From positions 256,001 to 320,000 of the forward strand of contig OZ250150.1 of the NCBI GenBank assembly GCA_965237675.1: 64,000 nt of DNA, in the 5' to 3' direction. The notes beneath the pieces are model-generated. The model saw only the letters and a list, made by a program, of their open reading frames with translations, had not been told where the DNA came from and made no database searches. The translations under genes and the position numbers were made by a program. Of the stretch, positions 10,511 through 30,012 are shown piece by piece (within the stretch, counting starts at the first letter, position 1; each line of letters starts with the position of its first letter). This DNA comes from Candidatus Latescibacterota bacterium. Lineage in GTDB: Bacteria; Latescibacterota; UBA2968; GCA-2709665.

Positions 10511-10615
10511 GTATTTCCTCCCATTTAAACGATCAGATGTGAACACATCCAACGATCCGCATACCAGTGCGGGCGCGGCTCAGTCTCAGTACCCTTTCTT
10601 CATTCATGTGTACAC

Positions 10616-10673: not shown

Positions 10674-10692
10674 GACCGAACGTGCCGAAACG

Positions 10693-10915
10693 GGCACAAA
10701 AAAATCCCGCTCCATCCCCTCGCCATTCAGTGATGAACTTTCCGGCGGCACCCCGATTAAAGGGTGCCGGGCAGTGTCACCACTCACGCAGCTTTGAGGA
10801 TGCGGGAAGGTCCTACGTATTCGCCGAGGACATGGGAGCTACCCTTGCCCCTTGAAAGTCAGCTATTGTATTCGGTAGGCTACCCGACATACGGGTACTG
10901 CCCGAGTGGTGACAA
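10693..10915 (-). ncRNA. Candidate structured RNA or attenuator leader (family unassigned)
   Basis: 11-bp terminal stem tgtcaccactc/gagtggtgaca (10775-10785 with 10904-10914), internal stems, a GC hairpin at 10747-10768 and a U7 tract; begins just after a sigma70-like promoter. Confidence 0.45.
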
Positions 10916-10919
10916 CCGA

Positions 10920-10948
10920 AATATAGATTCCGCGAATGAGAAAGACAA
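10920..10948 (-). promoter_or_regulatory. sigma70-like promoter TTGTCT-N17-TATATT
   Basis: Read directly; predicted +1 coincides with the 5' arm of the long stem. Confidence 0.5.
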
Positions 10949-11135
10949 GCGCAATTTCAGGTTAAGACTGAAGAATGCTATCGGACTGCAGCGTCGGCGT
11001 GCGCTTATCCGAAGTCAGCCGCTGCGTTGACGGTTCGCTACGATTGAGCCCAACCACCGGTAAACCGGAGGCGTACCTCGAGGTCTATTTCGCTGCCATT
11101 GGTGAAGCACGCAGTCACCGGCCTCTGCCGGGCAT

Positions 11136-11954
11136 TTATTGTCGCATCTGCTTCCCGGCCTCCCAGATCGGATAGCGTATGTCCGCCCGTTGCAACTCTC
11201 TCTGCAGCCACTGGCTGAACAATGTGTTGCGAATCTCGTCTGTGATGCGATCGTCCAGCGTGGCGGGATAGGTTTGCTGCATCATGAACAGCGCAAACCC
11301 GCCCGATGCCTTTTCGGGGCCGAAGATTTCACCTGGCGAGGCGGCAAAGAGGCGTGCGGCAATTCCCTTCGGCAACTGCTTGCGCCGGACGCGCCCCATA
11401 AACCCGCCGGCCGGGCGCGTGCGATCATCTTGGGAGAACTCCCGGGCCATTGCGCAGAAATCGGCGCCGTCCTCACTCGTCTGAAGTCCAATCTCGTCGA
11501 TAACGCCTCTGTCCCGATGGAAAATCCAGCAGACCTCCGCCTCGTCGAACTCCAGCGTGTGTTGCGCAAAATAGGGTTCGATCCCTCCCTCGGCGACTTT
11601 GTCGGAAAGCAGGCGCTCCAGCAGCCTGGCTTCGGCATCCGCCGCAACGTCCCGTAGTGTAATGCCTCGTGAAACGAGCCAGGCTTCCGTGTCTTCAACG
11701 CGTTCCAGCCGATTTTTGTACCGCCACCCATCCACATCGCGCTGGATGTCCTCCGGCTTCGTGCGAACACCCTCACGGATGGCAAGCTGGCGGATCAGTT
11801 CTCTTCGCGCGAACTCACCGAAAAAGCTGAGCTTGTCGGCAACACACATTTGACGGACTAAATGGTTCAACGAGACGTCGGCTCCGTTGACCCGAATCAC
11901 GGTAATATCCCGCTGCGCAATTTCCGAAGCGGCCTCTTCCGGACCCCGCATCAC
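11136..11954 (-). CDS. PpiC/parvulin-type peptidyl-prolyl isomerase-like protein (peptide maturation associated)
   Basis: DF..MAREFSQD...AGGFMG.V....LP...A..F rotamase motif; coupled to hlyD. Confidence 0.8.
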   Translation of the reverse strand: MMRGPEEAASEIAQRDITVIRVNGADVSLNHLVRQMCVADKLSFFGEFARRELIRQLAIREGVRTKPEDIQRDVDGWRYKNRLERVEDTEAWLVSRGITLRDVAADAEARLLERLLSDKVAEGGIEPYFAQHTLEFDEAEVCWIFHRDRGVIDEIGLQTSEDGADFCAMAREFSQDDRTRPAGGFMGRVRRKQLPKGIAARLFAASPGEIFGPEKASGGFALFMMQQTYPATLDDRITDEIRNTLFSQWLQRELQRADIRYPIWEAGKQMRQ

Positions 11955-13351
11955 GTATCCCCCGGAATAGTAACCGACGTTTTCGTGGCATCATAGGTCG
12001 CCGACTCGTACAGCTTTCGCAAAGGACTGAGCAGCATCAGCAATACCGATTGGCGGTCCGTCATGATCTCCGCCGTCCCCTTCATGCCGAAGAGCAACGG
12101 CTTAGGTTGTCCTTTTACGACCATGGAGGTTTCTTCCAATTCAACAACACCTTTGAAGATCGGACCGACACGCTCGTCGATGACGGCATCGGGCGAGAGT
12201 TGTTTGAGCCATCCGCGTTTGATGCCGAAGTCCTGAAATGCAAATGCGTCGTACTTCAGTTTGACGATCTGTCCCGGTTTGAGCAGGCCCACGTCTTTGT
12301 TCAGCACCGTGAGTTCGGCAACCATGGGGACGGAGGCCGGCGCCACTGAAACCAGCGCCTGCCCCTTGCTGATCACCTGTCCGACCGCGTTCACCATCAC
12401 CTGGGTTACAATGCCGGGTTCGGGCGCCAGAATCAGATCCGATTCGGCTTCCAACTGTCGATCGACGCGTTTGCGCGCCTGGTCCAATTTCAATCGCGCG
12501 GTTTCATACGCGTGTTTCATCTGCGAGGCCTCACGCCCGTGGGCGATGCGAGCCTCGAGAATCTGCCGCTGGAGATCCTGGACAGCCGTTTCGTTCCTAT
12601 AGATTTCCGACATGCGTCCCGGAAGCGCCGCCAGGGCGTTTATGTACCGGACGCGGGCGCGGTTGATTTCCGCCCGGCTGATCAACTTGCGCTCAAACAG
12701 CATTTTCTGCTGAACGTACTCCTGTTTCAATTGGTCGATTTCAGCCTGACGAAAACCGATCTGCGCCTGCAACTCCGCATCCGAAGCGGCTTCCCCGGAT
12801 GACGCGGCATCGCCCAAATCGGCGCGATAGTCTCGCAGGGCATCCCGGTGTGCGTCCATAAACCGCTCCAGGACAGACAGTCGTTTCTCCAATGAGGCGA
12901 TCGTTTCCCGGGTCAATTGAGTCCTCTGCGGCAATACCTTTACGACATCGTACCTGGCCTTTTGGAACGCCATTTCCGCCTGTTCCAGTTCTCTCAGGTC
13001 TCCCCAGGTCTCCCATGACTTCAGCTTGAACAACAACTGGCCTTCCTCGATCCGATCGCCCTCCCTGATGCCGATATACTCAATTTCACCGTCTCGAAGG
13101 GCCTGCAGCGTTTTCACTTTCCCCAGAGGTACCAAACGGAAGGGCGCCGATGCCACCACGTCCACCTTGCCCCACCACGCCCAGACGACCGCAATTCCGA
13201 CAAATAGAAGAACGATATACAGCAACGCCCGACCCCAGAACGGCCTAAGAGACCCCACGAACGCGCGCATTTCTTCCGCGTCGTCGTCCCGGCCCGGGAG
13301 AATGACCGGCGTCGCTGCTGCCGACGGCTTTGTTAGTCCGGGTTCCGCCAT
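11951..13351 (-). CDS. HlyD family membrane fusion protein
   Basis: N-terminal TM, lipoyl-like halves, coiled coil, KYDAFAFQDFG...ISPDA-like motif, GMKGTAEI. Confidence 0.9.
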   Translation of the reverse strand: MAEPGLTKPSAAATPVILPGRDDDAEEMRAFVGSLRPFWGRALLYIVLLFVGIAVVWAWWGKVDVVASAPFRLVPLGKVKTLQALRDGEIEYIGIREGDRIEEGQLLFKLKSWETWGDLRELEQAEMAFQKARYDVVKVLPQRTQLTRETIASLEKRLSVLERFMDAHRDALRDYRADLGDAASSGEAASDAELQAQIGFRQAEIDQLKQEYVQQKMLFERKLISRAEINRARVRYINALAALPGRMSEIYRNETAVQDLQRQILEARIAHGREASQMKHAYETARLKLDQARKRVDRQLEAESDLILAPEPGIVTQVMVNAVGQVISKGQALVSVAPASVPMVAELTVLNKDVGLLKPGQIVKLKYDAFAFQDFGIKRGWLKQLSPDAVIDERVGPIFKGVVELEETSMVVKGQPKPLLFGMKGTAEIMTDRQSVLLMLLSPLRKLYESATYDATKTSVTIPGDT

Positions 13352-13378
13352 CAGATCGGCTCCTGGTCTGCCGGAGGT

Positions 13379-16300
13379 TCAAACCACCTGCAACTGCTGA
13401 CTGCACATGTGATAGTAAAGACCTCGGCGAACCATCAGTTCTTCGTGCGTGCCCATGTCGACGATGTGGCCGTTTTCCAGTACAACAATCGTGTCCGCAT
13501 CCCTCACGGTGCTCAGACGATGGGCAATAACGAGGGATGTGCGATTTTCCAGGAATAGCGCCAGGTTGGACTGAATCGCCCCTTCAGAGTCCGTATCCAG
13601 CGCATTTGTCGCTTCATCGAATATCAGTATTTTCGGATCGCGATACAGCGCCCGCGCGATCACGATCCGTTGCCGCTGCCCGCCGGACAATCCGATTCCC
13701 TGTTCGCCCACCTTCGTCTCATATCCCAAAGGCATATCGCTTACGAAATCGTGTACGCAGGCCAGTCCGGCAACTTCCATAAGCCTGTCCATGTCTGCGT
13801 CGGGTTCTCCGACCGCGATGTTCTCCGCAATGGTGCCGCTGAACAGAAACGAATCCTGCATGACCATTCCCACCTGGCGTCGCAGCCAGTGCGGGTCGAA
13901 ATCTCGCACATCCATCCCGTCCAGAAGCACACGCCCTTCCGAGGGATCGAACAGGCGGGGCACCAGCTTTACGAGCGTGGTCTTTCCCGCGCCACTGCGT
14001 CCGGCAATGGCGACCTTTTGGCCCGGTTCCAGTTCCAGCTTGATGTTGTTCAATACATAGGGTTCGTCGGATCCGACGCCGTACCTGAAAAATACCCCAT
14101 CAAACACCAGGCGGCCTTCAACCCGTTTCAGTCTCAGCCCGTGTCCGCGTTGGCGCGCATCCTCCATCTTCGATTCGTAGATGTCATTCAGCCTATCCAA
14201 TGCGACCCGGGCTTCCTGGACCTCCGGCCATATGCCGATCAGTCCCATAATGGGTCCCATCACATTGCCGATGAGGGCGTTGAACGCCATCAACTGCCCG
14301 ACCGACAACTCCCCTTCGATCACCAGGGAGGCGCCATACCACAATATCACCGTGGAACTCAACAGGTTGATCATACTTCCGCCCGCACCGAACAACATCT
14401 CCATTTTCAGCCGCCGAAACCCGATCTGAATTTCCTTCGTAAACTTGCCCTCCCACTGCCATCTCGTAGCGCGCTCGACGGCTTCGGCTTTCACCACGTC
14501 AATGCCATGCAGCGAATCGATCAGGACAGACGACTGTTCCGCGCGGGCAAGAAAAGCGCGCTGGCTGAAGGACTTCAGAATCGGGGTGTAGATCAGCGTC
14601 AACCCCACGGACGGCGGCACGAATATCAACATCACGAGCGTCAACTCCCAATTGTAGTAGAACATCAGCCCGAGATAGACGAACAACATGATAAAGTCGA
14701 GTATCGCCGAGATGGTCGTGTCCGTAAACAGGCGCTGGATCGTGGCATTTTCCTCAAACCTCGTGGTCAGATCCCCCGTGCGGCGCAGCGCGAAAAACCG
14801 CATGGACAGGCCCAGCAGATGCCGATAGAACCGGGATAACATGGTCAGACTCAACCGGGCGCTCATATACCCGACCAAATACGCGCGCAACGTCGAGGTG
14901 CCCATTTGAAACAGCGCCACGACGACCATGCCCGCCAGCATCAGGTTCAAGAGATCCTCGTCGTGATGTACCAGCACCTGATCTACAATGGTCTGCGTGA
15001 AAATGGGCGAGGCAAGTCCGAACAGACTGAGCACCAGGGACGCCAGCAGAACCTCGACCAGAATGGCCGTATATGGCTTGATCAACGGGAAAAAACGTCT
15101 GAAGGAAGACCTGGAGGGTTCATTTTCCGCCACCTGATCCGTGTATTCCAGCAGCAGCGCCATGTTGGTCCAGCTTTTCTCGAACTCCGGACGCACCAAC
15201 CTGCGAATCCCTACGCCGGGATCCGCGATTTTCACATCCTTTTTCGTGATCTCGTACAACACCACGAAATGGTTGCCCTCCCAGTGCAAAATCGCCGGCA
15301 GTCCGGTCCGCATCAGCGCTTCATAGCCCGTGCGCACGCCCCTCGTGACGAACCCCAACGTCTCCGCCGCCTCGGCCAGCGCCGCCATCGACGTGCCCTC
15401 CCGCGACACGTTGCACATTTCGCGCAACCTGTTCAACCCGATCGGCATCTTGTAATACTTGCAGATCATCCCCAGACACGCCGCCCCGCAATCGGACTCG
15501 TCGTGCTGTTTTAGAAATGGAAAACGAAACGATGTGGGCGCTCTTTGTTCCTCTTCACCTTCCCCGGCGCTCACGACATTGGAAGCCGTGTCTTCTGATT
15601 CCTCGACACCCTGCCCCGGCGTCGATCGAGCCTGGACCCGGGCCCGAGATCCGCCAGGTCGAGACGGATCGAATGGAGGCCCGCCGGATTCCTGTTTCGA
15701 GTGCAATCGCCGTGCCATTTCCAGCAAGGACTCCAATGCAGGAATTGCATATTTGAGGCTATCAAAATCGTTTTTGTCCAAATAATAGATAATGCAATCG
15801 TTTTGACTGCGGATCGCCAGTGACTCGCCACCGGAAGACTCCGTATCCTGGAAGAAATCACCCGCACCCAGACTAAAGGTGCTGCCATCCTCGGCAACCC
15901 CTTCCAGAAGACCGCTGCCCACCAGATAAAACCGCCCGCCCGAACGACCGGGTTCCACAACCGTCGTTCCCTCCGCCACCTCTTCGCGCTTCAAACGCCC
16001 GAACAACTCCCGCATCGCGCCGCCATTCACTCCGCGGTTCAGATGCCGGGTAAAATTTCGATATGCGATATCCGCAACCTGATCCTGAAGATGGGCTTCC
16101 AGTTCCGGTTCTTTCTTCAACACCTTGAAGAATTCATCCCCGGACACCTCCAACACCCGGGAATCCTCAACCGCCCGCACTGTTGCCCGATGACCGCGCC
16201 CCGTCAACAGCGCCCCTTCGCCAAAGTGATCGCCGGCGTACAAAAACCCCACGGTTTCCGCCTGGGCATCCGCAATCTGCTTGATCACCCGCAATCGACC

Positions 16301-16450
16301 CGACTGAAGTATGCAGAAGACATCACCAGGTCCCCCTTGATCGAAGACGACCGACCCGAAAGGAAACCGGGCGGATTCTGACTGAATCGAATGTTGGGAA
16401 AAAAGGGAAGACACGTCCATTATTTGTAACCCTGCCAGAACATCGTACAA
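13379..16450 (-). CDS. Peptidase-containing ABC transporter (two cNMP-binding domains, C39 peptidase, TMD, ATPase)
   Basis: GDHFGEGALL...R.ATV (cNMP); QHDESDCGAAC, HWEGNHFVV, ADP (intact Cys-His-Asp); GRSGAGKT, LSGGQRQR, DEAT. Start uncertain (TTG 16450 or ATG 16420). Confidence 0.92.
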   Translation of the reverse strand: MYDVLAGLQIMDVSSLFSQHSIQSESARFPFGSVVFDQGGPGDVFCILQSGRLRVIKQIADAQAETVGFLYAGDHFGEGALLTGRGHRATVRAVEDSRVLEVSGDEFFKVLKKEPELEAHLQDQVADIAYRNFTRHLNRGVNGGAMRELFGRLKREEVAEGTTVVEPGRSGGRFYLVGSGLLEGVAEDGSTFSLGAGDFFQDTESSGGESLAIRSQNDCIIYYLDKNDFDSLKYAIPALESLLEMARRLHSKQESGGPPFDPSRPGGSRARVQARSTPGQGVEESEDTASNVVSAGEGEEEQRAPTSFRFPFLKQHDESDCGAACLGMICKYYKMPIGLNRLREMCNVSREGTSMAALAEAAETLGFVTRGVRTGYEALMRTGLPAILHWEGNHFVVLYEITKKDVKIADPGVGIRRLVRPEFEKSWTNMALLLEYTDQVAENEPSRSSFRRFFPLIKPYTAILVEVLLASLVLSLFGLASPIFTQTIVDQVLVHHDEDLLNLMLAGMVVVALFQMGTSTLRAYLVGYMSARLSLTMLSRFYRHLLGLSMRFFALRRTGDLTTRFEENATIQRLFTDTTISAILDFIMLFVYLGLMFYYNWELTLVMLIFVPPSVGLTLIYTPILKSFSQRAFLARAEQSSVLIDSLHGIDVVKAEAVERATRWQWEGKFTKEIQIGFRRLKMEMLFGAGGSMINLLSSTVILWYGASLVIEGELSVGQLMAFNALIGNVMGPIMGLIGIWPEVQEARVALDRLNDIYESKMEDARQRGHGLRLKRVEGRLVFDGVFFRYGVGSDEPYVLNNIKLELEPGQKVAIAGRSGAGKTTLVKLVPRLFDPSEGRVLLDGMDVRDFDPHWLRRQVGMVMQDSFLFSGTIAENIAVGEPDADMDRLMEVAGLACVHDFVSDMPLGYETKVGEQGIGLSGGQRQRIVIARALYRDPKILIFDEATNALDTDSEGAIQSNLALFLENRTSLVIAHRLSTVRDADTIVVLENGHIVDMGTHEELMVRRGLYYHMCSQQLQVV

Positions 16451-16721
16451 GTGGGAACGATACGTCCAGAAACCCGGATCCTGAAATTAACGGATACAAC
16501 GCCATGACATACTAAAAATAGTATGATAACAGCCATTGACCACAATCAGGATTCATCCAACCAGAGGATCAGTTACGCGTTTGGCAATGTAGCGATCTTT
16601 GGCAGGAGAATTACGATTCGGTAAATGCTCAATTGATGTGGTCTGTCACGTTGATAACAGAGAGCCATCTCTACAGTACTTTGGAGGCGTCGCCTGCCGG
16701 CTCTTGCGATTCCGGTTGGGT

Positions 16722-17534
16722 TTAGCCAGTGTCCGCGCATTTGTCCGCCGGCAAAATGCGGAAGCCGATTTCCGACGGGTGATCGCGAACGTATCTGTCA
16801 TTCTCAAATCGGCGGACCTTGATAAACAGCAGCACATCTCCGGCACAACTGCAGAACGTGAGACTGAAGAGCAATAGCGACCAGATCGCCGGGTCCCACC
16901 ACAGTATCAGACCGGCGGCCGGCGTGGTCACAATCAGGGGCAAGAGCGCGAACACCCGGTAAACACCCACCGTCATGGGTCTGTCGACGTGACAATACAA
17001 GGCCACCCATCGCCTGAAGATTCCGAAGTGCAGCGATTGAATTGGAATCTTACCCCAGCACAGGGCGGCAAGACCGTGGAGTGCTTCGTGGAAGACATAG
17101 AAGGCGATCAGGTATCCTGGAAACTTCAGTAAGTCGTTGAACATCAGACGCATATCGATTTCCCGTGACAAGGCATCTCCCGCCAGGATACCACTTGCAA
17201 ACGCAGTCCAGAACATGAGCATGAAAATTATGCCCACATCTTCTATATCCAGACCCACATCTATAGGTTTCTGCGCGTTGTTGCGATCCTCTTCCCCTGT
17301 TCCCGATGTGAAGACATCGCGTATGATCGACACGAATCTGTCGCCATACGCACAGAGCGCCTTTCGTGACATCAAAAAGTACATCGACATGCCAGTTAGG
17401 ACGCCAATCACTATCGCATAGTCAAGATCAAGTAAGTACCTGAGGATGAGCATGGCCGGCGCTACGGATAGCATCCCAAACAATGCGGCAGCGACAATCA
17501 GCCGTTTCCACGTGTTTCCGAGACAGGCGTACAT
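16722..17534 (-). CDS. DUF3267-like membrane zinc metallopeptidase
   Basis: FHEALHG, LYCH, ALLPL, CAGD, VRDHPSEIGF; ATG at 17534 after ggaggt. Confidence 0.75.
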   Translation of the reverse strand: MYACLGNTWKRLIVAAALFGMLSVAPAMLILRYLLDLDYAIVIGVLTGMSMYFLMSRKALCAYGDRFVSIIRDVFTSGTGEEDRNNAQKPIDVGLDIEDVGIIFMLMFWTAFASGILAGDALSREIDMRLMFNDLLKFPGYLIAFYVFHEALHGLAALCWGKIPIQSLHFGIFRRWVALYCHVDRPMTVGVYRVFALLPLIVTTPAAGLILWWDPAIWSLLLFSLTFCSCAGDVLLFIKVRRFENDRYVRDHPSEIGFRILPADKCADTG

Positions 17535-17640
17535 CAAACAGGACCTCCGTTCATGGTTCCATTGCCCTTTTTGAGGGGACGGAAAGGGGCGCGTACCGTA
17601 AATTGCTCGGACCGAGAGGCCAGATACAATCGACCAGCGT

Positions 17641-18495
17641 CTACCGGTCATCACTTGCAGCATCTGGCGCCACAAGTCCGTCCGTGGTGTCGGGTTGGGT
17701 GCTGTTCGAGACGTGGTAAAACCACCACAATCCAAGAGATGCCACAATTGCCCCCGCTGCACTCCACCACCACGGATTAGAGGTCACAACATTAAGGTCT
17801 TCTGCAACACGGAAAAAAGGAATGTCAAAGTGTTGGATGGTCACTGAGACGAAATTATGCAATGCGTGTGCGACAAGCGCGGGCCACAAAGATCCCGTGA
17901 GGATAACCCACCAGGCAAATACGAGACCCCATATAAGGGCCGGCGGAAGTTGCCAGGGGTTCAGATGCCCCACACCGAACAGTATCGCTGACCAGACAAT
18001 CGCGTAGATGCGGGTATAATTCGCCAGCAGACCACATAAAATGACACCTCTAAAAAGCAACTCTTCGATCAACGGTGCTACGAAAACTGCCACGAACAAG
18101 GCTGCCGAATAGGTTGTCTTGCGACCGGCCGTCGATTGAAAGACCTCTTGAAAAAAATCAGACATTGGAATTAGGAATGTGACGACCTTGTCCAATTCAT
18201 CAAGGACCACCACCATGCCAGCCACCGTTATTGCAACGCAGGGCCATACTCGCCAATCAAAGTCTATTCTCATGAGTTGCGATACATCATTCCACGATCG
18301 ATCAGTGCGACGAAAAATCCATATTAGAAGGAGAAGGAAAACTGCCAGTTGTAGTATACCGATCAGGAGGTTTTCCTCGTGCAAACGCTCGCCATAGGTG
18401 AGCCGTACAATACCGATGAGCACTCCCAAACCGACTTGAATCAGAATGTACAAGACCAGCAACCAAATCGCCTGTTTCAGATTCGGAAACACCAT
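17641..18495 (-). CDS. CPBP (CAAX/Abi) protease paralog 4
   Basis: EELLFRG, FGVGH, HALHN. Confidence 0.9.
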   Translation of the reverse strand: MVFPNLKQAIWLLVLYILIQVGLGVLIGIVRLTYGERLHEENLLIGILQLAVFLLLLIWIFRRTDRSWNDVSQLMRIDFDWRVWPCVAITVAGMVVVLDELDKVVTFLIPMSDFFQEVFQSTAGRKTTYSAALFVAVFVAPLIEELLFRGVILCGLLANYTRIYAIVWSAILFGVGHLNPWQLPPALIWGLVFAWWVILTGSLWPALVAHALHNFVSVTIQHFDIPFFRVAEDLNVVTSNPWWWSAAGAIVASLGLWWFYHVSNSTQPDTTDGLVAPDAASDDR

Positions 18496-18743
18496 TCAAC
18501 TGCCCTCTCTTACGACTCTTATGATCTCAATTTCCCGTAAATGTCACCGGCTGCGGTTGATAAAAATCCAACCGCTATGCCTGTCGGAATTGGCAATTTC
18601 AATCTAAAGGATATCGTCGCGGAGTGTACGGAATCAAGAAACCCCGCTCTCCTCTCCATTAATCCCTTACACGACTGGAGCGGGGGCGATTGTTTGTTCC
18701 TGTCCCTGGCGCAAAAGTTGCGAGTCCATCCTTACAGGTCATC

Positions 18744-19586
18744 TCATTCGCCATCTGGCGCCACGACTCCGTCCGGGGTAACGGGCTGTCTGCCGTTTGT
18801 AGCCAGGTAAAACCACGACAGTCCAGTCGCAGCTATTACTGCCCCCGCTGCACTCCACCACCACGGATTGAAAGACACAACATTCAGGTCTTCCGAAACC
18901 GCGAAATATGGAATTTCAAAGTGCACAATTGTCGCGAAAATGAAGTTGTTCAAAGCGTGCCCAACAAGCGCGGGCCATAAAGATCCCGTCCTGATAACCC
19001 ACCAGCCCAATACCAGGCCACCTATCAGGGAAGCCGGAATTTGCCAGGGGTTCAGATGACTCACGCTAAACAGTATCGATGACCAGATAATCGCGTATGT
19101 CCTGGAATAATTCGACAGCAGGCCACTCAAGACAACACCTCTAAAGAGCAACTCTTCGACATATGGTGCGACAACGGCTCCCCGGAACAGGGCAGATGGA
19201 TAGGATGTTCCGCGCCCGAGCGTTGTATGGAAGATCACCTGCATAGATTCCGGTATTGGAAATCCGCATACTACGGCTTTGTTCAATTCAAAAAGAACCA
19301 TCACCGTGCCGGCTATCGATATTGCAACGCAGGCCCATATGCGCCAATCGAAGTTTGTTTTCGCAGGTTGCAAGAGACTTACCCACCGTCGATCCGTACG
19401 ACGGGAAATGTATGACAAAATCAGAAGAAAAATCCCGAATACCAAGAGCCCCATCGCATAGTTGTTATGCTCAAGGGACTCGCCACTGATAAGTTGCACA
19501 ACGTCGATGAATATTCCCATGACCACTTCCATCAGGATGAGCAGGGCTAACACCCAACAGGCCTGCCTCAAGTTCGGATACGCCAT
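18744..19586 (-). CDS. CPBP (CAAX/Abi) protease paralog 5
   Basis: EELLFRG, FSVSH, HALNN. Confidence 0.9.
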   Translation of the reverse strand: MAYPNLRQACWVLALLILMEVVMGIFIDVVQLISGESLEHNNYAMGLLVFGIFLLILSYISRRTDRRWVSLLQPAKTNFDWRIWACVAISIAGTVMVLFELNKAVVCGFPIPESMQVIFHTTLGRGTSYPSALFRGAVVAPYVEELLFRGVVLSGLLSNYSRTYAIIWSSILFSVSHLNPWQIPASLIGGLVLGWWVIRTGSLWPALVGHALNNFIFATIVHFEIPYFAVSEDLNVVSFNPWWWSAAGAVIAATGLSWFYLATNGRQPVTPDGVVAPDGE

Positions 19587-19732
19587 TTCAATTCCCTTTT
19601 TTGACCTTCAAACCTACGGGGTAGCGGTACTTCAGAGTACCGCGATCAGCCCATCCGCATTTTCCGGGATAGGAGCACGAATTGCAGAATGCTCCTATCC
19701 CAGTATTCAACACGAGGTTCGCCTACATTATT

Positions 19733-20011
19733 CTATCGCTTGCAGCAGCAACAACTGCAACAGCTTTGGTGGTTGGACGGTTTCTTGTTGTCGTTCGATG
19801 TCACCTCAGCCACAGTCACACCGGTGGCAACGCCTGTTATATACGTGAGAACCTGCTTGCCAACTTCGATGGCAATTCGTACCCAATTGCCACCGAGTGT
19901 TTCTCCCATTTGTCTACGATCGAGCAATTCTTCGCGCCGATGCAAAGGGCTGCAGGTTACAACCATGTTACCAGCATCTGTCGCCATCGGATTGGCCAAA
20001 GCATGAGTCAT
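19733..20011 (-). CDS. Double-glycine-leader peptide precursor P1 (92 aa, Cys-rich tail)
   Basis: AGGAGG RBS; 41-aa leader ending ELLDRRQMGETLGG; core NWVRIAIEVGKQVLTYITGVATG...SCCSCCCCKR. Confidence 0.8.
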   Translation of the reverse strand: MTHALANPMATDAGNMVVTCSPLHRREELLDRRQMGETLGGNWVRIAIEVGKQVLTYITGVATGVTVAEVTSNDNKKPSNHQSCCSCCCCKR

Positions 20012-20476
20012 GAAGTCCTCCTGGAGAATTGATGGTATTAAACGATGTTCGACAATAGGGTGTGCAAACGATTGCAACAAGAGGGATTGGTTCCCTCAAA
20101 GTTAGGGGTTGTAAGGATTTCACTAAATATTCAACGACAAGTCACATCGCGCGCAGGTTCGATTCCATTTCCGGTCTGTCGAAGGCAGCCCATAGAAAAT
20201 CGCTCCGTCGTTAACTTAACCCGCTCGGCCATTTTAATACGCCCTTTCTCGACCGCTTCAGTGAGGCGCAAACAGGTTCCGTTCTACGATGTCCCACGAA
20301 CCTTCAGCAACTCGCTGAGATGTTGGTTTGCGGACGATTTTTCTCGGCTTCGGCAAGATATCAACACAGCGGACGTGAAGAACGAGCATGTTGAAAGTTC
20401 AGTTCGGAACGGCGGCTGTGGAGAACCCCGGAAGAACGGCTATGCAACAGACTACTTCCGCTGCTGGATTCAGCCT

Positions 20477-20683
20477 TCAACGAGGTCTGGCCAAGTGCTC
20501 GATAACTTCAGCGACAAGTCGTATGGCAAAACCCACGTATCGACCGAGTCGGTCATTTCCTGGAAAAACAAGCCCACCAGAGGCATGCATCATCTCACGA
20601 TGCGCCAGTTCCATCTCCCGGCCGGGGAGTTGGGCACAGGTCACGGAAACCTGGCCTCGTCTTGAGGGAAATCGATCGCTCAT
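20477..20683 (-). CDS. Double-glycine-leader peptide precursor P2 (68 aa)
   Basis: AAGGAGGTGA RBS; 37-aa leader ending ELAHREMMHASGG; core LVFPGNDRLGRYVGFAIRLVAEVIEHLARPR. Confidence 0.8.
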   Translation of the reverse strand: MSDRFPSRRGQVSVTCAQLPGREMELAHREMMHASGGLVFPGNDRLGRYVGFAIRLVAEVIEHLARPR

Positions 20684-20846
20684 TTCATCACCTCCTTTCT
20701 TTGACATCGCAGCGATGCGCCGGGATGTCTTGTGGGCTTCGCCGCGAAATCAGGGAAGTCCGCGGTGAAAAGTTGAAGACTCAGTTCGAAATGTCGACAG
20801 GAGAGATCGCCAGGAAAAACGGCTTTCCGCCCGGTCAGCCCCAATA

Positions 20847-21050
20847 TCAGTTCCCGTCGTCGAAATAATCTACGATGGCCTCTGCAACTAACTTGGCGAC
20901 TGCTAGGATCACGATGCTTGGTCCAAAGGGTAAAACGAACCCTCCCGCCGCATTCTCCATCTCGCGGCGCGCCAGTCCAATTTCACGGCCAGGGAGTTGG
21001 GAACAGATCACGGCAGCCTGCGCTGGAGTCGATTGAATTAGATCCGTCAT
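20847..21050 (-). CDS. Double-glycine-leader peptide precursor P3 (67 aa)
   Basis: AAGGAGGTGA RBS; 37-aa leader ending GLARREMENAAGG; core FVLPFGPSIVILAVAKLVAEAIVDYFDDGN. Confidence 0.8.
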   Translation of the reverse strand: MTDLIQSTPAQAAVICSQLPGREIGLARREMENAAGGFVLPFGPSIVILAVAKLVAEAIVDYFDDGN

Positions 21051-21199
21051 TTCGTCACCTCCTTCCTCTTTGGGTCTCAGCGATACTCAGATGCATCCCT
21101 TAGCGCTAATTTGATGAGTCCATATACCTCTGCGCGAATGAATAGACGGACACATTTGGACCATCAAGGGCCACTTCTGGATGCGATATTGCTTGATGG

Positions 21200-21403
21200 C
21201 TACAGTACCGTAGACGGAACGTCGGGTTCAGGTAATTTCACGCCGAATAACTCAGCGATTAATCTTCGGAGGAGGCGCCCAAGCCCGGCGTCTCCACCGG
21301 AGATACGTGCGATCTGCCCGGCGGTCAAGTCTTCCGTCTGAATGGGTAACCGAGCCGGAATTCCGGACGAGTCCACAGGGCTTATTTCAATTCGTCTGGT
21401 CAT
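21200..21403 (-). CDS. Double-glycine-leader peptide precursor P4 (67 aa)
   Basis: AAGGAGGTGA RBS; 37-aa leader ending DLTAGQIARISGG; core DAGLGRLLRRLIAELFGVKLPEPDVPSTVL. Confidence 0.75.
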   Translation of the reverse strand: MTRRIEISPVDSSGIPARLPIQTEDLTAGQIARISGGDAGLGRLLRRLIAELFGVKLPEPDVPSTVL

Positions 21404-21631
21404 TTCTTTCACCTCCTTTCGTCAACATCCCAGCGATATCCAATCAATCTCCATTTTCTCTGATCAGGTAGCCGGATGCACATCGCTGAAATGCCGTGAT
21501 GCCCGAAGCGTTTTGTATGCCTTTTTCTGATCGCGGCACACGCCCCATTGGGGCGGCTTCGGCTGTGAGTCAACGGAAACTTCGTGACAAGGGACGCGGT
21601 TGGTCCCTCAATCCGTCGACGCATTGGACTC

Positions 21632-21646
21632 GCAAGGATTGTGCCA
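21632..21646 (-). promoter_or_regulatory. sigma54 (-24/-12) promoter
   Basis: TGGCAC-AATCC-TTGC on the minus strand, matching the consensus, about 230 bp upstream of P4. Confidence 0.7.
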
Positions 21647-22004
21647 CTCCCAGTACCCCTGGGCATAACTGTCTGGCTTGCAAACGCGGATTTATTTTTG
21701 AACTGTTGGCAAGTAGCCGTGGCACGGCTGGTTCCTGAATAATGTGTTCCACTCTGCGTCATTCAGATGAAACTTTGTTGCATTTTGCGCGGCGCCGAAC
21801 GAACCCGGAAGCGTTGCAACAAAAAAAACACCGGTGACAAGAGCCACCGATGTTCGATCCAACAAGAAACTTCAGATGGGTAATTTCAGCCCGCGCTCGG
21901 CGGGCAAGCACGCGAAGGGTATTTGGTCAACAAGGCTGCTTTATTCGCGAATCAATCATCTTCCCCGCGCACAATGGCTTGTCGAGCCCTTGAGGAATCG
22001 TGAA

Positions 22005-22309
22005 GGTGGGGCAGACATTCCTGTCTGCCCTTCTCATTGTCCTTTTGCCGGAATGCAGACAGAAGAAAGGCTTGCGCCGCCACTATAGAACCAATACTCG
22101 GGATGGCGCTTGAGCCACAGCTTACGCGCTTCTTGGAAGGCACGGCGTTTGTCCCTGGGGGATCGCGTCAGCCAGGCGAAAGGTGATCCAATAGACAGCG
22201 CCGTCCTACTTCCAGTGGGGAAGACGGCGGCGAGTTTTGGCGTTCCCGGACACAGCATTCTGAGATTTCGGTTTGCTGTATATGAGCAGACAAGAATGCC
22301 TGCTCCACC
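22005..22309 (-). mobile_element. Degenerate RAYT (REP-associated tyrosine transposase) remnant flanked by inverted REPs
   Basis: Reads RRRLPHWK*DGAVYWITFRLADAIPQ, then a frameshift, then RRAFQEARKLWLKRHPEYW. REPs: ggtggggcagacattcctgtctgccc (22005-22030) and agcagacaagaatgcctgctccacc (22285-22309). Confidence 0.65.
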
Positions 22310-22728
22310 TTTTCAAGCTTTTGTTCGAAGTATCGCTTGAGGGCATCAACCATCCGAGACAAACCGCCCTGTACTTGCTTCCGCCTCCCGAAACAGCAAG
22401 GCGCCATTGTCTCCTTTGCGCGTGCGGTGACGCAAAGGCAGACCGGTCGTCACCGTCAAATGCGAGCGGGAAACCGCTGGCATCCGCGAAGCGACGGCGC
22501 CTGGCTCTATCGTTCCGATAACGCCATCGAATGCCGCCGCTCGCTTTGACGTATTTCCACGAAAGACGTCCCGTTACAGTTGCCGAGGTTCCGAGATATC
22601 GTTAAACTTGGTAACGTCGTCGTTGAACGTTCCGCGGAACGCCAATGGGATGAGGATAACGAAGTGATAGGGCCCCGTAGCGTAAGCCGGGACCGCGTAA
22701 ATCCACCACCAGCAACCAATCGACATCT

Positions 22729-23172
22729 ATGCAACGATACGGAAAATTCCTGTCTCCGACATTCGTCAAATTCGTGCTGACCGGTCTCTCGGGAGTGTTC
22801 GTCAATCTCGGTTCGTTTCAGCTGTTGCTCAGTCTAGGCGTGCACGAATTGCTGGCGTCGCCGATTGCGATTGAACTGTCGATTATCTCGAATTTTCTGC
22901 TGAACAACTACTGGACCTTCAGCGACCGCGCGTTGTCCGGAAAGAAGCGCGTACGGGGTTTGAAATATCACCTCGTTACCCTGTTTACGCTTATGCTGAG
23001 CTATGGCACGTTCGTGTTGCTTTCCTTCCTTTTTCCCGCGGTACCACTCGTGATTTGGCAGGGCTGCGCGATTGCCCCGGCCGGTTTATTCAACTATTCC
23101 GTCAATTCCCTATGGACGTTTCGCGACGTGACCCTCGATCGGGCGGGAAACAGCGAGGACGGCGCCCAATGA
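22729..23172 (+). CDS. GtrA family protein
   Basis: FVKFVLTGLSGVFVN, NFLLNNYWTF, NY.VNSLWTF. Confidence 0.85.
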   Translation: MQRYGKFLSPTFVKFVLTGLSGVFVNLGSFQLLLSLGVHELLASPIAIELSIISNFLLNNYWTFSDRALSGKKRVRGLKYHLVTLFTLMLSYGTFVLLSFLFPAVPLVIWQGCAIAPAGLFNYSVNSLWTFRDVTLDRAGNSEDGAQ

Positions 23173-25250
23173 ATCGCGTGAATGCCATAAATAAAGGTTT
23201 TGAATCAATCCGCGATGGCACCGCTCTGGTTGCGTCCATTGTCGCGCCGCTCCTGCTTTACGTGCTGACGATGCCGCGCACCGTTGTTCTGGAAGACGAC
23301 GGGTTGTTTCTGATGGCAGGGGCGCACCTGGGCGTGGCCCATCCACCGGGATATCCGCTCTATACGCTCATTGTCTATCTCTTCACACAATTGCCCTTCG
23401 GCAGCGTCGCCTTCCTCGGCCATTTATCCAGTGCGGTACTGGGCGCGCTCGCGTGCGGTTGCGTTTATATTTGCGGCCGTCTGACAGGCGCCTCGTCGAT
23501 TCCGGCCCTGACCGCCGCGTGGCTGTTTGCCGCCTCCGAGCATTTCTGGTCTCAGGCCATTGTCACCGAGGTCTATACGCTCAATGCGCTGTTTTTCTTC
23601 GGACTCTACGTGCTGCTCTTGTTCGGCATCCGCCAGCCGCACCGAAACGGCATCTGGATTGCCGCGGCTGCGGCCTACGGATTGAGTCTCGCCAATCACC
23701 TGCCCCTGACAGTGCTGTCAACGCCGGGTTTGATCCTGCTGGTCTTTGCCGTTCGGCGCACAGTATATAGGAAACTCCCTCTGCTCCTGGCCATTCTCGT
23801 GTGCTGCGCGGCTTTTCCATATATCTGGATGATCTGGAGGTCGCACCATGAAATACTGATTAATTTCTACGGCCCTATCGATACAATTAAGGAAGTCTGG
23901 TTCTACGTCAGCCGGCAGGGGTACGTCGACGTCGATACCAGCCCCAGCGCGGGATGGGATGACCGGTTCAAGTTCATGCAGTGGCTTGGCAACGAGTCTT
24001 TGTGGCAATTGACGCTGCCGGGATTTGCCTTGTCGGTGTTCGGCCTGGTCGTTCTGTTTCGCAAGCGGCAGATCGCATTTGCGGCATCGGGATTGCTGGT
24101 CTTTTTGGGAAATAGTATTGTGTTGATCCTCCTGCTGCGCTTCGATTTCGACGATTTCCAGGTTGCGGTGTTTCGTCCCTATTCGCTGTCGTGTTACGCC
24201 ATCCAGGCAATATGGCTGGGCATTGGTCTTCACGTTGTCTATTCCTGGTTGGCAAGGAGCTTCTCCTCCAGGACGGTCCGGCAACCGAAAGTCAGAATCG
24301 GTGCGGCATCGCTGGCCGGCCTCGCGTTAGTCTGTTGGTCCGTGAATTCGCACTGGCGGGCAAACGACAGGGCCGATAGCGACTTTGCCGAGCGCTACAA
24401 TGAAATGGTGATGGACCTCGTGCCGGAAGATGGGGTCCTGTTCGTATTCGGAGATCCAACCGGCCACGTCGGCTACTATCGATACGTCGAAAACCGACGT
24501 CCGGACGTCACGCTGTACAATCTGCAGGGACTCGTATTTGGCACGCGCCTCTTCAGTCCGTTTATGTCCGCTGCGTCACGGAAAGAGACCCTGGAAAAAT
24601 TCGTCGACTCGACCGAACGCGCGCTCTTTTTTCCACTTGATGTCGATATCTATCCCGAACGTGAACAATGGATTTATGGCTTTCTTCTGCAGACCGCCAG
24701 AGGTGGCAAGCCGGGGACGATAAAGCTGAAGCGCCACCCACGCGGCGAGGAGTTCTTCGTACACCTCATCAACCGGCAGCCCATCGATCGCTGGGAGCGC
24801 GTCAGGCGCAACGAATTGCTGTTTCAATATGGGCAATACCTGGGATTGATCCATTTTACGGGCCACCCGCTACGCGATCAAGTACAGGACCTGCTCCAAC
24901 TCGCACATGGAACTTATGCAAGCCTCCTCGGCATGGCCACCGTCTTACTGGATAACGGAAACAGCTCAAACTGGGAGCAGGTCTCGGCATGGTTGGCCAG
25001 GGCGGAGACGCTGAAGCACGAAGCCCTGAAGAAGAAAACTCTCGCGGAGCTATACTACCTGAAAGGAAGGTTGCTACAGAAGCAGGATCAGACCAACGCG
25101 GCCATCGTGTCGTTCAGGAAGTCCCGAGATATATATCCCCATCCCCAGAACAAGGCGCTCGAAGCCCTCGACCAATACAGGATCGACTTCAAACGCGTCA
25201 ATCCGCCTGGTCCAAAGAGCTCCAAATCCGGCTTGCCCCTCCCCCGTTAA
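23169..25250 (+). CDS. DUF2723 / TMEM260-like GT-C membrane glycosyltransferase with a C-terminal TPR-like tail
   Basis: LEDDGLF, LGVAHPPGYPLY, FWSQAIVTEVYTLN, GLSLANH; ATGA overlap with the gtrA-like gene. Confidence 0.8.
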   Translation: MNRVNAINKGFESIRDGTALVASIVAPLLLYVLTMPRTVVLEDDGLFLMAGAHLGVAHPPGYPLYTLIVYLFTQLPFGSVAFLGHLSSAVLGALACGCVYICGRLTGASSIPALTAAWLFAASEHFWSQAIVTEVYTLNALFFFGLYVLLLFGIRQPHRNGIWIAAAAAYGLSLANHLPLTVLSTPGLILLVFAVRRTVYRKLPLLLAILVCCAAFPYIWMIWRSHHEILINFYGPIDTIKEVWFYVSRQGYVDVDTSPSAGWDDRFKFMQWLGNESLWQLTLPGFALSVFGLVVLFRKRQIAFAASGLLVFLGNSIVLILLLRFDFDDFQVAVFRPYSLSCYAIQAIWLGIGLHVVYSWLARSFSSRTVRQPKVRIGAASLAGLALVCWSVNSHWRANDRADSDFAERYNEMVMDLVPEDGVLFVFGDPTGHVGYYRYVENRRPDVTLYNLQGLVFGTRLFSPFMSAASRKETLEKFVDSTERALFFPLDVDIYPEREQWIYGFLLQTARGGKPGTIKLKRHPRGEEFFVHLINRQPIDRWERVRRNELLFQYGQYLGLIHFTGHPLRDQVQDLLQLAHGTYASLLGMATVLLDNGNSSNWEQVSAWLARAETLKHEALKKKTLAELYYLKGRLLQKQDQTNAAIVSFRKSRDIYPHPQNKALEALDQYRIDFKRVNPPGPKSSKSGLPLPR

Positions 25251-25569
25251 AAACCCGCTCTTGTTGCCCGTCCGACCCGCCAAACATACGCCGATAACAT
25301 ACCGGCACAATACGTAGAAGCATGGGAATTCAGCGAAGATCCCATGCCCGCATCGATGTGAAAGGAGACGCTTCTCTTCCTCAATAACCAGCAAGGATCC
25401 CCAAGTACGAAGGTGGCGGTTTCTCCGACTGCATCTGCTTGACATTGCTGGACATGGTGGGTATTTTCAAGAGGCAAGCGAAGAAAACCGCGACGCCATC
25501 GCTAATTTACTAGTTTAATCGTGCGCTCTTCGAGGGGTTGAAGCCAGTCAGGGCGTGGAGGTACATACA

Positions 25570-26022
25570 ATGAGAAATGTCGATATAGCCGTGTCCAGTA
25601 CGGATGAAAAACTCCAACTCGTCGTGGAAATCAAGAACAAACCAGGTGCGTCCGCCGAGTGGGTCACACTCATGCGGCGCAATTTGCTGGTGCATTCATT
25701 TTTGCCTTTGGCTCCATACTTCCTGCTTGTGCTCCCAGACTACCTCTATCTTTGGACGGAGGCCTCTACAGCAGATAATCTGGCAAAACCTGACTACAAA
25801 ATTGAGACCACCGAAATATTCGCACCCTATCTCAAATCCAACCAATCCCTTAATGATTTAAGTGGGTATGGGCTCGAATTGCTTACGATTTCGTGGCTGG
25901 AAGATTTACTTCATACAGACATGGGACGTGACTCGGTTGACAGAAATCTCCACTGGCTCTTTAACTCGGGGTTATATGAAGCAATTACAAACGGTTCACT
26001 TGAACTCGAAGCTACAACATGA
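25570..26022 (+). CDS. Hypothetical protein (D...VVEIK nuclease-like motif), partner of the PIN gene
   Basis: RBS ggaggt before ATG 25570; ATGA overlap with the next gene. Confidence 0.6.
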   Translation: MRNVDIAVSSTDEKLQLVVEIKNKPGASAEWVTLMRRNLLVHSFLPLAPYFLLVLPDYLYLWTEASTADNLAKPDYKIETTEIFAPYLKSNQSLNDLSGYGLELLTISWLEDLLHTDMGRDSVDRNLHWLFNSGLYEAITNGSLELEATT

Positions 26023-29292: not shown

Positions 29293-29802
29293 CTAGTATC
29301 TCTTACGTGTGGCAATTGCGTCTTCAACCATACTCGAGAGGTTTCTGGAAATCCAACTATACCGATCCGTACTGTTCCAGCCCGATGGATTGTAGCAGGT
29401 CACAACTCTTGACATGAGTGTAAATGCCCCCGGAATCTGAATGTAGGAAAATGGAATGGAACCCATTATTGAGTTCTCGCCGAAAACATCCTTCAAACCA
29501 TGAATATACACACCCACAACGCCCATACCGCGATTCCAGGACTCGATGATTTCATAGTTTATCCACTTCCTATCTGCCGTGTTTGTCCCAGCAAGAACGA
29601 TCGTACATGACCTTCCAATCATCTGGCTCTTGATCCAATAGGCTATGGCCGCATCTCCTCTTCGCTTCACGACTTCCCAATCGTTGTCGGTCGCCGGCCT
29701 ATTACCTTCGATAACGCCGATATTGCGAACTTGGGAAGCCCGCCAGTTATCTTCCCTGTAGTAGAAGCTGTAAAACGCTCTTCTTTTTGGCCAGTTCGTC
29801 AT
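29293..29802 (-). CDS. TIR domain protein (ThsB/MTH538/DUF1863-like)
   Basis: RAFYSFYY..DNWRASQVRNIG, SCTIVLAG..TA.RKWINYEI (catalytic Glu), GVYIHGLKD. Confidence 0.85.
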   Translation of the reverse strand: MTNWPKRRAFYSFYYREDNWRASQVRNIGVIEGNRPATDNDWEVVKRRGDAAIAYWIKSQMIGRSCTIVLAGTNTADRKWINYEIIESWNRGMGVVGVYIHGLKDVFGENSIMGSIPFSYIQIPGAFTLMSRVVTCYNPSGWNSTDRYSWISRNLSSMVEDAIATRKRY

Positions 29803-30012
29803 TCTAAATCCAACTGGGAGTCGGTGAGACGCGCCGAGGACTACACTCGGCAACTATGGTTCGTCTTTCAGGATATGTACACGGGCAAAGGAGCCTGTCG
29901 GAGAACCCCAATTTTGTGCGATCATCATTCAATATATTGATTTTATATTCCCAAATAACACTATTTATTGTATGCCGGGAGATGCTGGCATAGGTATTCC
30001 GACAGGCACCTA

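Follow-up and report, generated by a model that had tools for sequence, protein, structure and literature searches.

What do four short tandem genes upstream of an ABC exporter encode in a bacterium of the candidate phylum Latescibacterota, and what would their products be for? The genes, P4, P3, P2, and P1 in the order of the array, lie in a 64,000-nucleotide stretch of the genome of a Candidatus Latescibacterota bacterium (GenBank assembly GCA_965237675.1, contig OZ250150.1, positions 256,001 to 320,000), which we refer to as the window and in whose own numbering coordinates are given. An earlier note on this DNA had described them as peptide precursors with a conserved double-glycine (GG) leader and divergent cores, the core charges hinting at complementary multi-peptide assembly. 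We found that P1–P4 are real genes and that the four peptides are, close to certainly, substrates of the adjacent exporter. As to function, we would grant an even chance to the reading that we favor, in which the products are secreted without modification and act as a multi-peptide system of the bacteriocin or microcin kind, the intramembrane proteases serving as immunity proteins. The features discussed are collected in Table 1.

Counted on the translations, the leaders agree with the earlier description. Up to the GG they are 41 residues long in P1 and 37 in P2–P4 (GG at residues 40–41 and 36–37), all four have Leu at −12 and Met or Ile at −7, and P1–P3 carry a V-x-C-(S/A)-(P/Q)-L-x-(G/R)-R-E block with Cys at −22. 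Position −4 is T/A/A/I, and by their GG ends and hydrophobic positions all four are double-glycine leaders. A hidden Markov model search of open reading frames (ORFs) in 23 loci yielded 69 matches, with 62 distinct leaders ending in GG; these were 37 residues long, or 41–42 in the P1 type, with a single exception of 39, and five further matches had no GG at the leader end. Fifty-six distinct leaders from the 23 loci aligned without an internal gap, with Leu −19 present in all 56, Leu −12 in 52, Pro −18 in 46, Cys −22 in 40, and Met −7 in 39. The GG is invariant in this alignment by construction, as it was the criterion for calling a leader. An essential role for Cys −22 was considered and rejected, the residue being absent from all P4-type and some P1- and P2/3-type leaders.

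The leader is also shared well beyond the window. Within the three leader types, the leader was more alike than the core in 126 of 153, 260 of 300, and 175 of 190 pairs, and a sister genus carries a near-identical P3-type leader on very acidic, quite different cores. Searching 1.84 billion representative proteins with a leader-only profile gave 82 matches at E-values up to 1e-3. Eleven of these, with at least four matched stretches each, were set aside (two were inspected and were repeat proteins); the other 71 were single-stretch matches, and each of the 58 inspected was a short peptide whose N terminus is the leader. A conserved leader family, with a register fixed over 56 leaders and homologs that do share the leader, is thus what the earlier note had seen. 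By region, the first 17 leader residues evolve fastest, as judged by the ratio of nonsynonymous to synonymous substitution rates (dN/dS). A class of leaders in the same register ending in Gly-Leu was also observed (locus L038, 15047–15427, minus strand; also in L040, L042, and L044), and it carries long Gly/Ala-rich or Cys-containing cores.

That P1–P4 are real genes follows from their ribosome-binding sites, purifying selection on leader and core, and the existence of relatives. GGAGG stands 5–8 nt before each ATG (8 nt for P4) and is absent before both CPBP genes next downstream (18744–19586 and 17641–18495). A profile of the four peptides, run on the 5.6-Mb genome, matched only the P1–P4 sites (E-values of 7e-33 to 3e-24, 44 candidates scored), and in a large protein collection it found 36 relatives among 193 candidates; the likeness among the four peptides is far beyond chance. 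For all four, Pfam (E up to 0.01) and NCBIfam (E up to 1) returned no family, and curated bacteriocin and pheromone precursor models (Bacteriocin_IIc, ComC, L_biotic, NHLP, Nif11, and others) did not match. Their neighbors in a protein atlas (lantibiotic, ComC, and Bacteriocin_IIc-like clusters) scored 0.80–0.86, with best values of 0.83 and 0.86, below the level that counts, and their named relatives are annotated "hypothetical protein." Such blank annotation is what chance ORFs or pseudogenes without a product would give, but the strong ribosome sites, dN/dS well below 1, retention across two bacterial families, and the 71 single-stretch leader matches refute that explanation for practical purposes and leave it a negligible probability.

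RNA-library contigs from one study overlap P1, P2, P3, and CPBP_a and give a weak hint that this region is transcribed. One contig, 20806–20986 over P3, has 2 mismatches; that over P2 stems from a relative, as it has 11. The basis is two metatranscriptome runs, each holding just 0.07–0.08 of the sampled words, in which uncovered parts are uninformative, DNA carry-over is possible, and neither strand nor level is readable. A scan of 19500–22800 showed no signal, with 2 promoter sites where 2.2 were expected and 3 terminator sites where 3.9 were, and Rfam had no match in 7000–26000. The spacer between P2 and P1 (20012–20476) is 465 bases long, where the remaining spacers measure 146–163, and contains no member of the family; turnover of peptide genes may have left it behind, or it may be a second promoter region. 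Upstream of P4, the intergenic segment 21840–22345 is a dispersed repeat with 71 matches across the genome (77–100% identity, in pieces of ~30–365 bases), and its depth in a DNA run was 100–327 against 16.

For the cores, the lengths of P2–P4 (31, 30, and 30 residues), their net charges (+2, −3, and 0), and the shared RLVAE, KLVAE, and RLIAE segments were all as the earlier note had counted them. The P1 core, 51 residues long with a net charge of +3, also has V-A-E, so that V/I-A-E is common to all four, and V/I-A/S-E inside a hydrophobic stretch recurs in otherwise unrelated cores throughout the family. The impression that the cores look amphipathic was compared against shuffled sequences. 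It held for P2, the N-terminal part of P1, and P3, with best 18-residue hydrophobic moments of 0.68, 0.56, and 0.42 (fractions of shuffles reaching them, 0.02, 0.01, and 0.03), and not for P4 (0.48; 0.18). The P3 core, with a Kyte-Doolittle value of 2.10 over 19 residues, is hydrophobic enough to look membrane-spanning, while P4 joins a helical N-terminal part to a Pro-rich, acidic tail. In P1, an amphipathic or hydrophobic helix region is followed by V-A-E and a polar linker, and the C terminus is a Cys cluster ending CCSCCCCKR. This P1-type cluster is usually followed by two charged residues, and in the sister genus the peptide ends CCCCCCCDD. A CaaX box at the P1 C terminus was rejected, as a Cys at −4 is not constant. 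An AlphaFold2 model of the P1 precursor from an 11-row alignment was uninformative and was not used (mean per-residue confidence score pLDDT 49.5, predicted template-modeling score 0.15).

Divergence of the cores turned out to be of a particular kind. Discrete core types do differ, as had been claimed, but they are not hypervariable: within a type, core and leader dN/dS were 0.17 and 0.31, 0.24 and 0.40, 0.25 and 0.26, and 0.23 and 0.49 (groups of 7, 7, 6, and 3), the core value of 0.17 being that of the P4 type. Purifying selection on the core (0.17–0.25) is therefore at least as strong as on the leader (0.26–0.49), and the cores diverge by replacement of one type by another. The proposed charge complementarity between P2 and P3 did not generalize to relatives, because the P2 type occurs in only 3 of 15 genus loci and the cores are mostly anionic, the median net charge by leader type being −1, −4, and −3.

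What exports these peptides could be read from the genes downstream. The exporter consists of two stretches matching cyclic nucleotide monophosphate (cNMP)-binding domains (E 4.6e-27), a C39 peptidase (PF03412, E 9e-40, residues 310–436), ABC_membrane, and ABC_tran, in that order. The C39 domain keeps the Gln/Cys/His/Asp catalytic positions, as read in the sequence, and the peptidase-containing ABC transporter (PCAT) structure PCAT1 (4ry2) matches residues 310–1018 at 3e-129. The genome has no other C39 domain, and this one lies 3.3 kb downstream of the peptides on the same strand. The HlyD-family adaptor scored 205.6 bits with TIGR01843, just below the cut-off of 208.65. The PpiC-like protein has a SurA/PpiC parvulin domain at 160–226, with no signal peptide evident by eye; against TIGR04500 (putative peptide maturation system protein) it reached 79.1 bits of the required 180, over model positions 89–336 only, and in relatives its gene always follows HlyD. 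NHLP-type export was not indicated, the exporter scoring 574.3 bits against a cut-off of 853.3 (TIGR03796) and HlyD 36.2 against 156.2 (TIGR03794). The set of cNMP region, C39-ABC protein, HlyD, and rotamase gene is that of a long-type CAP_ED PCAT cluster of cyanobacterial group I/II, a statement about architecture only and not about orthology to HetC or PteB. We assign the four peptides to this exporter because they have canonical GG leaders, because the sole C39 domain is intact and nearby, and because peptides and exporter travel together in 21 loci. The 64-kb window contains no histidine kinase or response regulator, for which reason a regulatory pair was rejected, and no modifying enzyme was found in it.

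Six intramembrane protease genes accompany the four peptide genes, with catalytic motifs mostly kept. PF02517 in all five CPBP proteins (E-values of 3e-16 to 2e-21) places them in the CPBP/Abi Rce1-like family; in CPBP_a, CPBP_d, and CPBP_e all three motifs (EExxxR, FxxxH, and HxxxN/D) were found by pattern, and motif 2 of CPBP_b falls outside the search pattern. The DUF3267 protein has HEALH at 225, A-G-D at 307, and six hydrophobic segments by eye, and it probably begins downstream of 17640. Between DUF3267 and P1 the window has two CPBP genes, and a close CPBP_a counterpart directly after a P1-type gene was seen only in locus L030. Passages of the literature, PMC9298176 among them, give bacterial CAAX/CPBP proteins roles in immunity, processing, reception, and signal maturation, and PMC9298176, citing Kjos 2010, reports CPBP/Abi proteins as bacteriocin immunity proteins. 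For DUF3267, a 2026 account in PMC13712780 presents TmcP of Gram-positives as an intramembrane protease of the S2P clan, by which a transmembrane-helix bacteriocin is freed of its 45-residue leader.

Table 1. Peptide, export, protease, and neighboring genes of the window
Feature	Coordinates	Strand	Description and basis
P4 precursor	21200-21403	-	67 aa: 37-aa double-glycine leader and 30-aa core; first gene of the array
P3 precursor	20847-21050	-	67 aa: 37-aa leader and 30-aa hydrophobic core with acidic C terminus
P2 precursor	20477-20683	-	68 aa: 37-aa leader and 31-aa amphipathic cationic core; optional array member
P1 precursor	19733-20011	-	92 aa: 41-aa leader and 51-aa core
CPBP_a, CPBP/Rce1-like intramembrane protease	18744-19586	-	PF02517, E 1.6e-21; putative immunity (or processing) protein
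CPBP_b, CPBP/Rce1-like intramembrane protease	17641-18495	-	PF02517, E 4e-20; 57% identical to CPBP_a
DUF3267 S2P-clan intramembrane zincin	16722-17762	-	PF11667, E 1.8e-14
Long-type peptidase-containing ABC exporter	13379-16450	-	1023 residues; Pfam
HlyD-family periplasmic adaptor	11951-13351	-	PF13437
PpiC/parvulin-type rotamase-domain protein	11136-11954	-	PF00639, E 1.4e-10
CPBP_c, trailing paralogue	9683-10552	-	PF02517, E 2.5e-18; first motif K-E, not E-E
CPBP_d, trailing paralogue	8703-9530	-	PF02517, E 1.6e-19; 87% identical to CPBP_e
CPBP_e, trailing paralogue	7791-8618	-	PF02517, E 3.3e-16
GtrA-like protein	22729-23172	+	Pfam; divergent neighbor
PMT/TMEM260-like GT-C glycosyltransferase	23055-25250	+	Pfam; divergent neighbor

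A 35-member family profile matched 41 of 168 phylum genomes, including the genome of the window: all 14 others of its genus, all 21 of one genus of a sister family (with the same leader and quite different cores), 1 of 1 and 2 of 2 in two other genera of its own family, and two weak single matches (E ~6e-4 and 7.5e-4), with none in the remaining 43 genera. Peptides, exporter, HlyD, and the PpiC gene were co-located in 21 loci of four genera, and one genome has two complete copies (L040 and L041). Across the 13 genus loci with a full-length exporter, the exporter was 79–86% identical to that of the window, HlyD 74–88%, and the PpiC-like protein 62–81%. The DUF3267 and CPBP proteins encoded between peptides and exporter were mostly 35–74% identical (one DUF3267, 94%), and each locus had 0–3 DUF3267 and 0–2 CPBP matches there, fragments counted. 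In the other genera the exporter-HlyD-PpiC trio likewise follows GG-leader peptides, with exporters 63–76% identical.

Gene order in the genus is fixed by peptide type, with the P4 type first, then the P3 type, an optional third, and the P1 type last. The P4 type is present in 15 of 15 genus loci, as core allele a in 7 and b in 8; the P3 type is in 13, and the P2 core type of the window is shared only with L030 and L035. In the last place, the Cys-tailed P1a allele occupies 6 of the 15 loci, the tailless P1b (~58 residues) 7, and a third type 1, and one locus has a different peptide there; the Cys-tailed type also occurs in the sister genus. All four combinations of P4a or P4b with P1a or P1b occur. 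On a maximum-likelihood exporter tree (n = 21; L037 was left out as truncated, and L042 has no exporter), sister exporters accompany different peptide alleles, as in L030/L025 (support 100/99) and L029/L034 (99/98), and one clade with 100/100 support contains three different allele combinations.

The neighboring proteases move with the P1 alleles. A short DUF3267, whose alignments begin at residue 131–163 of the window protein, directly follows P1b in 7 of 7 loci and P1a in 0 of 6, and P1a is followed by a long DUF3267 in 4 of 6 and by a CPBP in 2 of 6. In one sister-genus genome, a unit of P4-type, P1-type, and CPBP genes is repeated three times. As the genomes are kin and the genes are neighbors, these counts describe cassette behavior and do not prove functional pairing. 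Two further observations were made in these loci. In L037 (genome G055), N-terminal exporter fragments alone (11277–12322, residues 5–355) accompany four intact peptide genes, and the next 11 kb showed neither HlyD nor PpiC; this exporter may be broken or rearranged. In the sister genus, L039 (11497–14271) and L043 (12151–14928) encode an S41 C-terminal processing peptidase, which together with two family-less ORFs lies between the CPBP genes and the exporter.

Among known systems, the cyanobacterial long-type clusters (groups I, II, and VI, with HetC and PteB) share with the window the trio of cNMP-PCAT, HlyD, and a rotamase or SurA-like protein, as described in passages of Wang, Fewer and Sivonen 2011 (PMC3140520), where such clusters seldom have recognizable precursors, group I averaging 0.35 per cluster. 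Published passages describe HetC as having this long-type architecture and binding ppGpp in vitro, with no substrate known and no GG peptide known near hetC. PteB of Synechococcus elongatus, which has HetC-like domains, secretes EbfG1–4 and so enables biofilm formation, according to passages of PMC4997328; there, as in the window, four tandem small GG-motif genes stand by the exporter. The likeness of the window to HetC and PteB is one of architecture only. The window differs in its own family of 37- or 41-residue leaders, which is not NHLP, Nif11, HetP, or DUF37, in its phylum, and in its CPBP and DUF3267 arrays, CAAX and Abi going unmentioned in the passages of PMC3140520.

Class IIb two-peptide bacteriocins of lactic acid bacteria, of the plantaricin type, combine two peptides, of little effect singly and synergistic as a pair, with an immunity gene of their own; they resemble the window in their GG leaders, PCAT, adjacent peptide genes, and CPBP beside the peptides. 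Small-xxx-small motifs as in class IIb are readable, as G-x-x-x-G, in the P1 and P2 cores, and window-type loci likewise pair a variable peptide and immunity region with a conserved transporter. Leaders in class IIb are roughly 15–25 residues long. The window, in contrast, has leaders of 37–41 residues, four peptides, six proteases, no three-component regulatory genes, an HlyD, mostly anionic cores across its family, and a host with a Gram-negative-type envelope. Class II microcins (MccV-type) are GG-leader peptides of Gram-negatives that are exported by a PCAT with an adaptor and are often anionic or hydrophobic; their immunity proteins are small dedicated proteins and are not known to be CPBP or S2P-like proteases. 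The cNMP domains and PpiC partner of the window are not known from them, and Pfam and NCBIfam gave no sequence relation. NHLP and Nif11 systems (TIGR03796/03794-type) also combine long GG-ending leaders, PCAT and HlyD, and several precursors per locus, but the window peptides match neither family and there is no second ABC subunit.

TMcins (TmcA/TmcP/TmcBC/TmcE; Bacillota and Actinomycetota) share with the window a DUF3267 zincin near a precursor of ~90 residues. With P1 in particular they share a leader of ~41–45 residues, followed by a hydrophobic helix and by Cys residues in the C-terminal part. The TMcin-like DUF3267, with HExxH and a distal Asp and encoded beside the precursor, was found here, and in four relatives it directly follows the P1a gene. 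The exporter, escort, and GG-less precursor that set TMcins apart by description were not found in the window, which instead of TmcBC has a GG leader, a C39 PCAT, and HlyD, with no TmcE or TmcD seen. P1 ends in a cluster of six Cys, where TMcin has two spaced Cys closing a beta-hairpin loop. According to passages of a 2025 paper, TMcins are known only from Gram-positive phyla.

Taken as class II bacteriocin- or class II microcin-like peptides, the products would be handled as follows. The C39 domain of the adjacent exporter would recognize the 37- or 41-residue leaders and cut after GG, and the exporter, HlyD, and an outer-membrane channel encoded elsewhere would secrete the cores. A nucleotide signal, acting through the two cNMP-binding domains, would gate export, and Pro-containing precursors may have the PpiC-like protein as their chaperone or isomerase in the cytoplasm. 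Short, helical, and predicted to be membrane-seeking, the cores, among them the Cys-tailed P1 and its Pro-tailed partner P4, would together attack the membranes of competing relatives. Self-protection would fall to the CPBP and DUF3267 proteins encoded beside the peptides and to three additional CPBPs encoded past the transport genes, which would cut or sequester any peptide entering the producer's inner membrane. We favor a weapon with immunity because a conserved transporter adjoins a fast-changing, reshuffled segment of peptides and proteases, and because the proteases are allele-linked, CPBP genes are in surplus, and no modifying enzyme or receptor gene was found in the window. The link of DUF3267 to a transmembrane-helix bacteriocin in passages of PMC13712780 counts in the same direction. 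From gene order, above all the tandem units of P4-type, P1-type, and CPBP genes, a multi-peptide function is suggested, and cooperation among the peptides is plausible.

Several points weigh against this preferred reading. The antibacterial role of the cores is a prediction from genes. Most family cores are anionic, unlike typical cationic pore-formers; class II microcins, too, are often anionic. A locus universal in two genera, with conserved cores, fits a housekeeping function such as signaling or matrix formation equally well. The linkage of peptide alleles to proteases can be explained by adjacency alone, as the genomes are kin, and the independent assortment of P4 and P1 alleles argues against a strictly co-adapted P4–P1 pair. 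Published precedents pull the same way: EbfG1–4 with PteB, the closest studied system, serves biofilm and not killing (PMC4997328), HetC serves cell differentiation, CPBPs are also processing enzymes, receptors, and signal maturases (PMC9298176), and the DUF3267 protein TmcP is a leader peptidase and not an immunity protein (PMC13712780).

These precedents define three other explanations for a real, exported peptide family. The cores could be secreted structural or biofilm-enabling peptides that build matrix or cell surface in the manner of EbfG1–4, with the proteases clearing mislocalized peptide. The passages of PMC4997328 describe EbfG1–4 as four co-transcribed proteins that are needed for biofilm, and the window combines the PteB/HetC-type exporter architecture with four tandem peptides of its own; the universal locus, the conserved cores, and a P1 Cys cluster that could cross-link peptides outside the cell would fit as well. 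Reshuffled discrete core alleles with allele-linked proteases are, by contrast, unexpected for matrix subunits, the cores are just 30–51 residues long, and those passages do not describe intramembrane protease arrays at the ebfG locus, so that we consider this explanation unlikely. An intercellular signal, exported by a HetC-like nucleotide-gated transporter and matured or sensed by CPBPs as pheromones are by SilX and MroQ, appears less probable still. Conservation of cores within types suits it, as do published accounts of HetC as a cNMP-domain PCAT, able to bind ppGpp in vitro, that is needed for differentiation and of a CAAX protease implicated in signal-peptide processing. The ComC-like clusters among the protein-atlas neighbors, at 0.80–0.86, are leads only. 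Yet the 64-kb window holds no receptor gene, whether for a histidine kinase, a response regulator, or another kind, four peptides with hydrophobic cores of 30–51 residues together with six proteases make a large set for a single signal, and a signal does not require allele reshuffling, though pherotype systems show it.

In the remaining alternative, which we hold to be just as unlikely as a matrix role, CPBP and DUF3267 would be maturation enzymes of membrane-matured peptides akin to RiPPs, peptides made by ribosomes and modified after translation, with products perhaps still antimicrobial; the proteases would trim the cores in the membrane, like TmcP, or act on the Cys tail, like Rce1 on a CaaX box. 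TmcP does remove a transmembrane-helix bacteriocin leader inside the membrane in the account of PMC13712780, SagE-type CPBPs have been proposed, in passages on this family, as leader peptidases, and DUF3267 directly follows the helix-bearing P1-type genes of relatives (4 of 6 P1a and 7 of 7 P1b). The S41 C-terminal peptidase added in two sister-genus loci points the same way, and the V/I-A/S-E common to very different cores could be a protease recognition site. Against such maturation, all four precursors already have a complete GG site for C39, the residues after the last Cys form no consistent CaaX box, and six proteases for four peptides, three of them far from the peptides, look like spare immunity genes.

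Glycosylation bears on the chemistry of the family. Three other genera have six loci in which a GT28C-like gene and a GT1 glycosyltransferase gene directly precede the peptides and run in their direction; these are intact in L039, L040, L041, L043, L044, and L046, with remnants in L045 and L042, and where one genome has two exporter loci, each carries a GT1 copy, the two being 92% identical. Neither gene has a homologue in the window or in the genus loci examined, and a GT1 query found no match in the window's own genome at E up to 1e-10. The window peptides are therefore probably not glycosylated by this route. Glycosylated peptides may have been the products of the ancestral cassette. The only glycosyltransferase-related genes in the window are the divergent GtrA and GT-C pair, so that no glycosyltransferase gene lies within the cassette as in glycocins. 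This pair is syntenic in most genus loci; in L033 a fragment of PMT was matched and GtrA was not. Many cores in the genera bearing GT28C and GT1 begin with Cys right after the GG.

A broader interpretation, which we regard as unlikely, is that these loci form a modular and as yet undescribed system of peptide weapons in Gram-negative-type bacteria, with a nucleotide-gated exporter of the HetC/PteB type and ancestrally glycosylated products, in which the dedicated 37- or 41-residue leader would serve as an address for interchangeable membrane-inserting cores and each core type would have an S2P-like DUF3267 or a CPBP as its protease guard. The poly-Cys-tailed helix peptides could then be a new class, with a tail that is metal-bridged, disulfide-linked, or lipidated. 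Literature searches on bacteriocins of Latescibacterota and on DUF3267, supplementary tables aside, found no description of this locus type. If the system is of this kind, the leader profile is a handle for finding substrates of HetC-type exporters; if the peptides are ordinary bacteriocins, they extend class II systems to Latescibacterota, which is useful and not surprising. Exporters of HetC/PteB architecture are widespread with substrates mostly unknown, and here the trio adjoins a conserved substrate family that lacks annotation, in a candidate phylum with no cultured member. The locus is a clean model for long-leader recognition by such exporters. The allele linkage of CPBP and S2P-like DUF3267 to exported peptides makes their debated role in immunity or maturation directly testable, and the poly-Cys tails together with the cassette-borne glycosyltransferases of relatives could point to new peptide chemistry.

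Elsewhere in the window, two ThsB-like TIR-domain proteins, a Thoeris-type defense domain, are encoded on the minus strand at 29293–29853 and 31248–31871, adjoined by an IS21-type transposase/IstB pair at 31989–34240. A fused restriction-modification enzyme of 949 residues (43672–46521, plus strand) combines helix-turn-helix, Eco57I/N6 methylase, and BsuBI/PstI endonuclease domains. On the minus strand, 40415–43007 and 47052–49903 contain three WD40 beta-propeller ORFs and two pentapeptide-repeat proteins. Two of the WD40 ORFs, 41794–42510 and 42354–43007, overlap in different frames and may be a single frameshifted gene.

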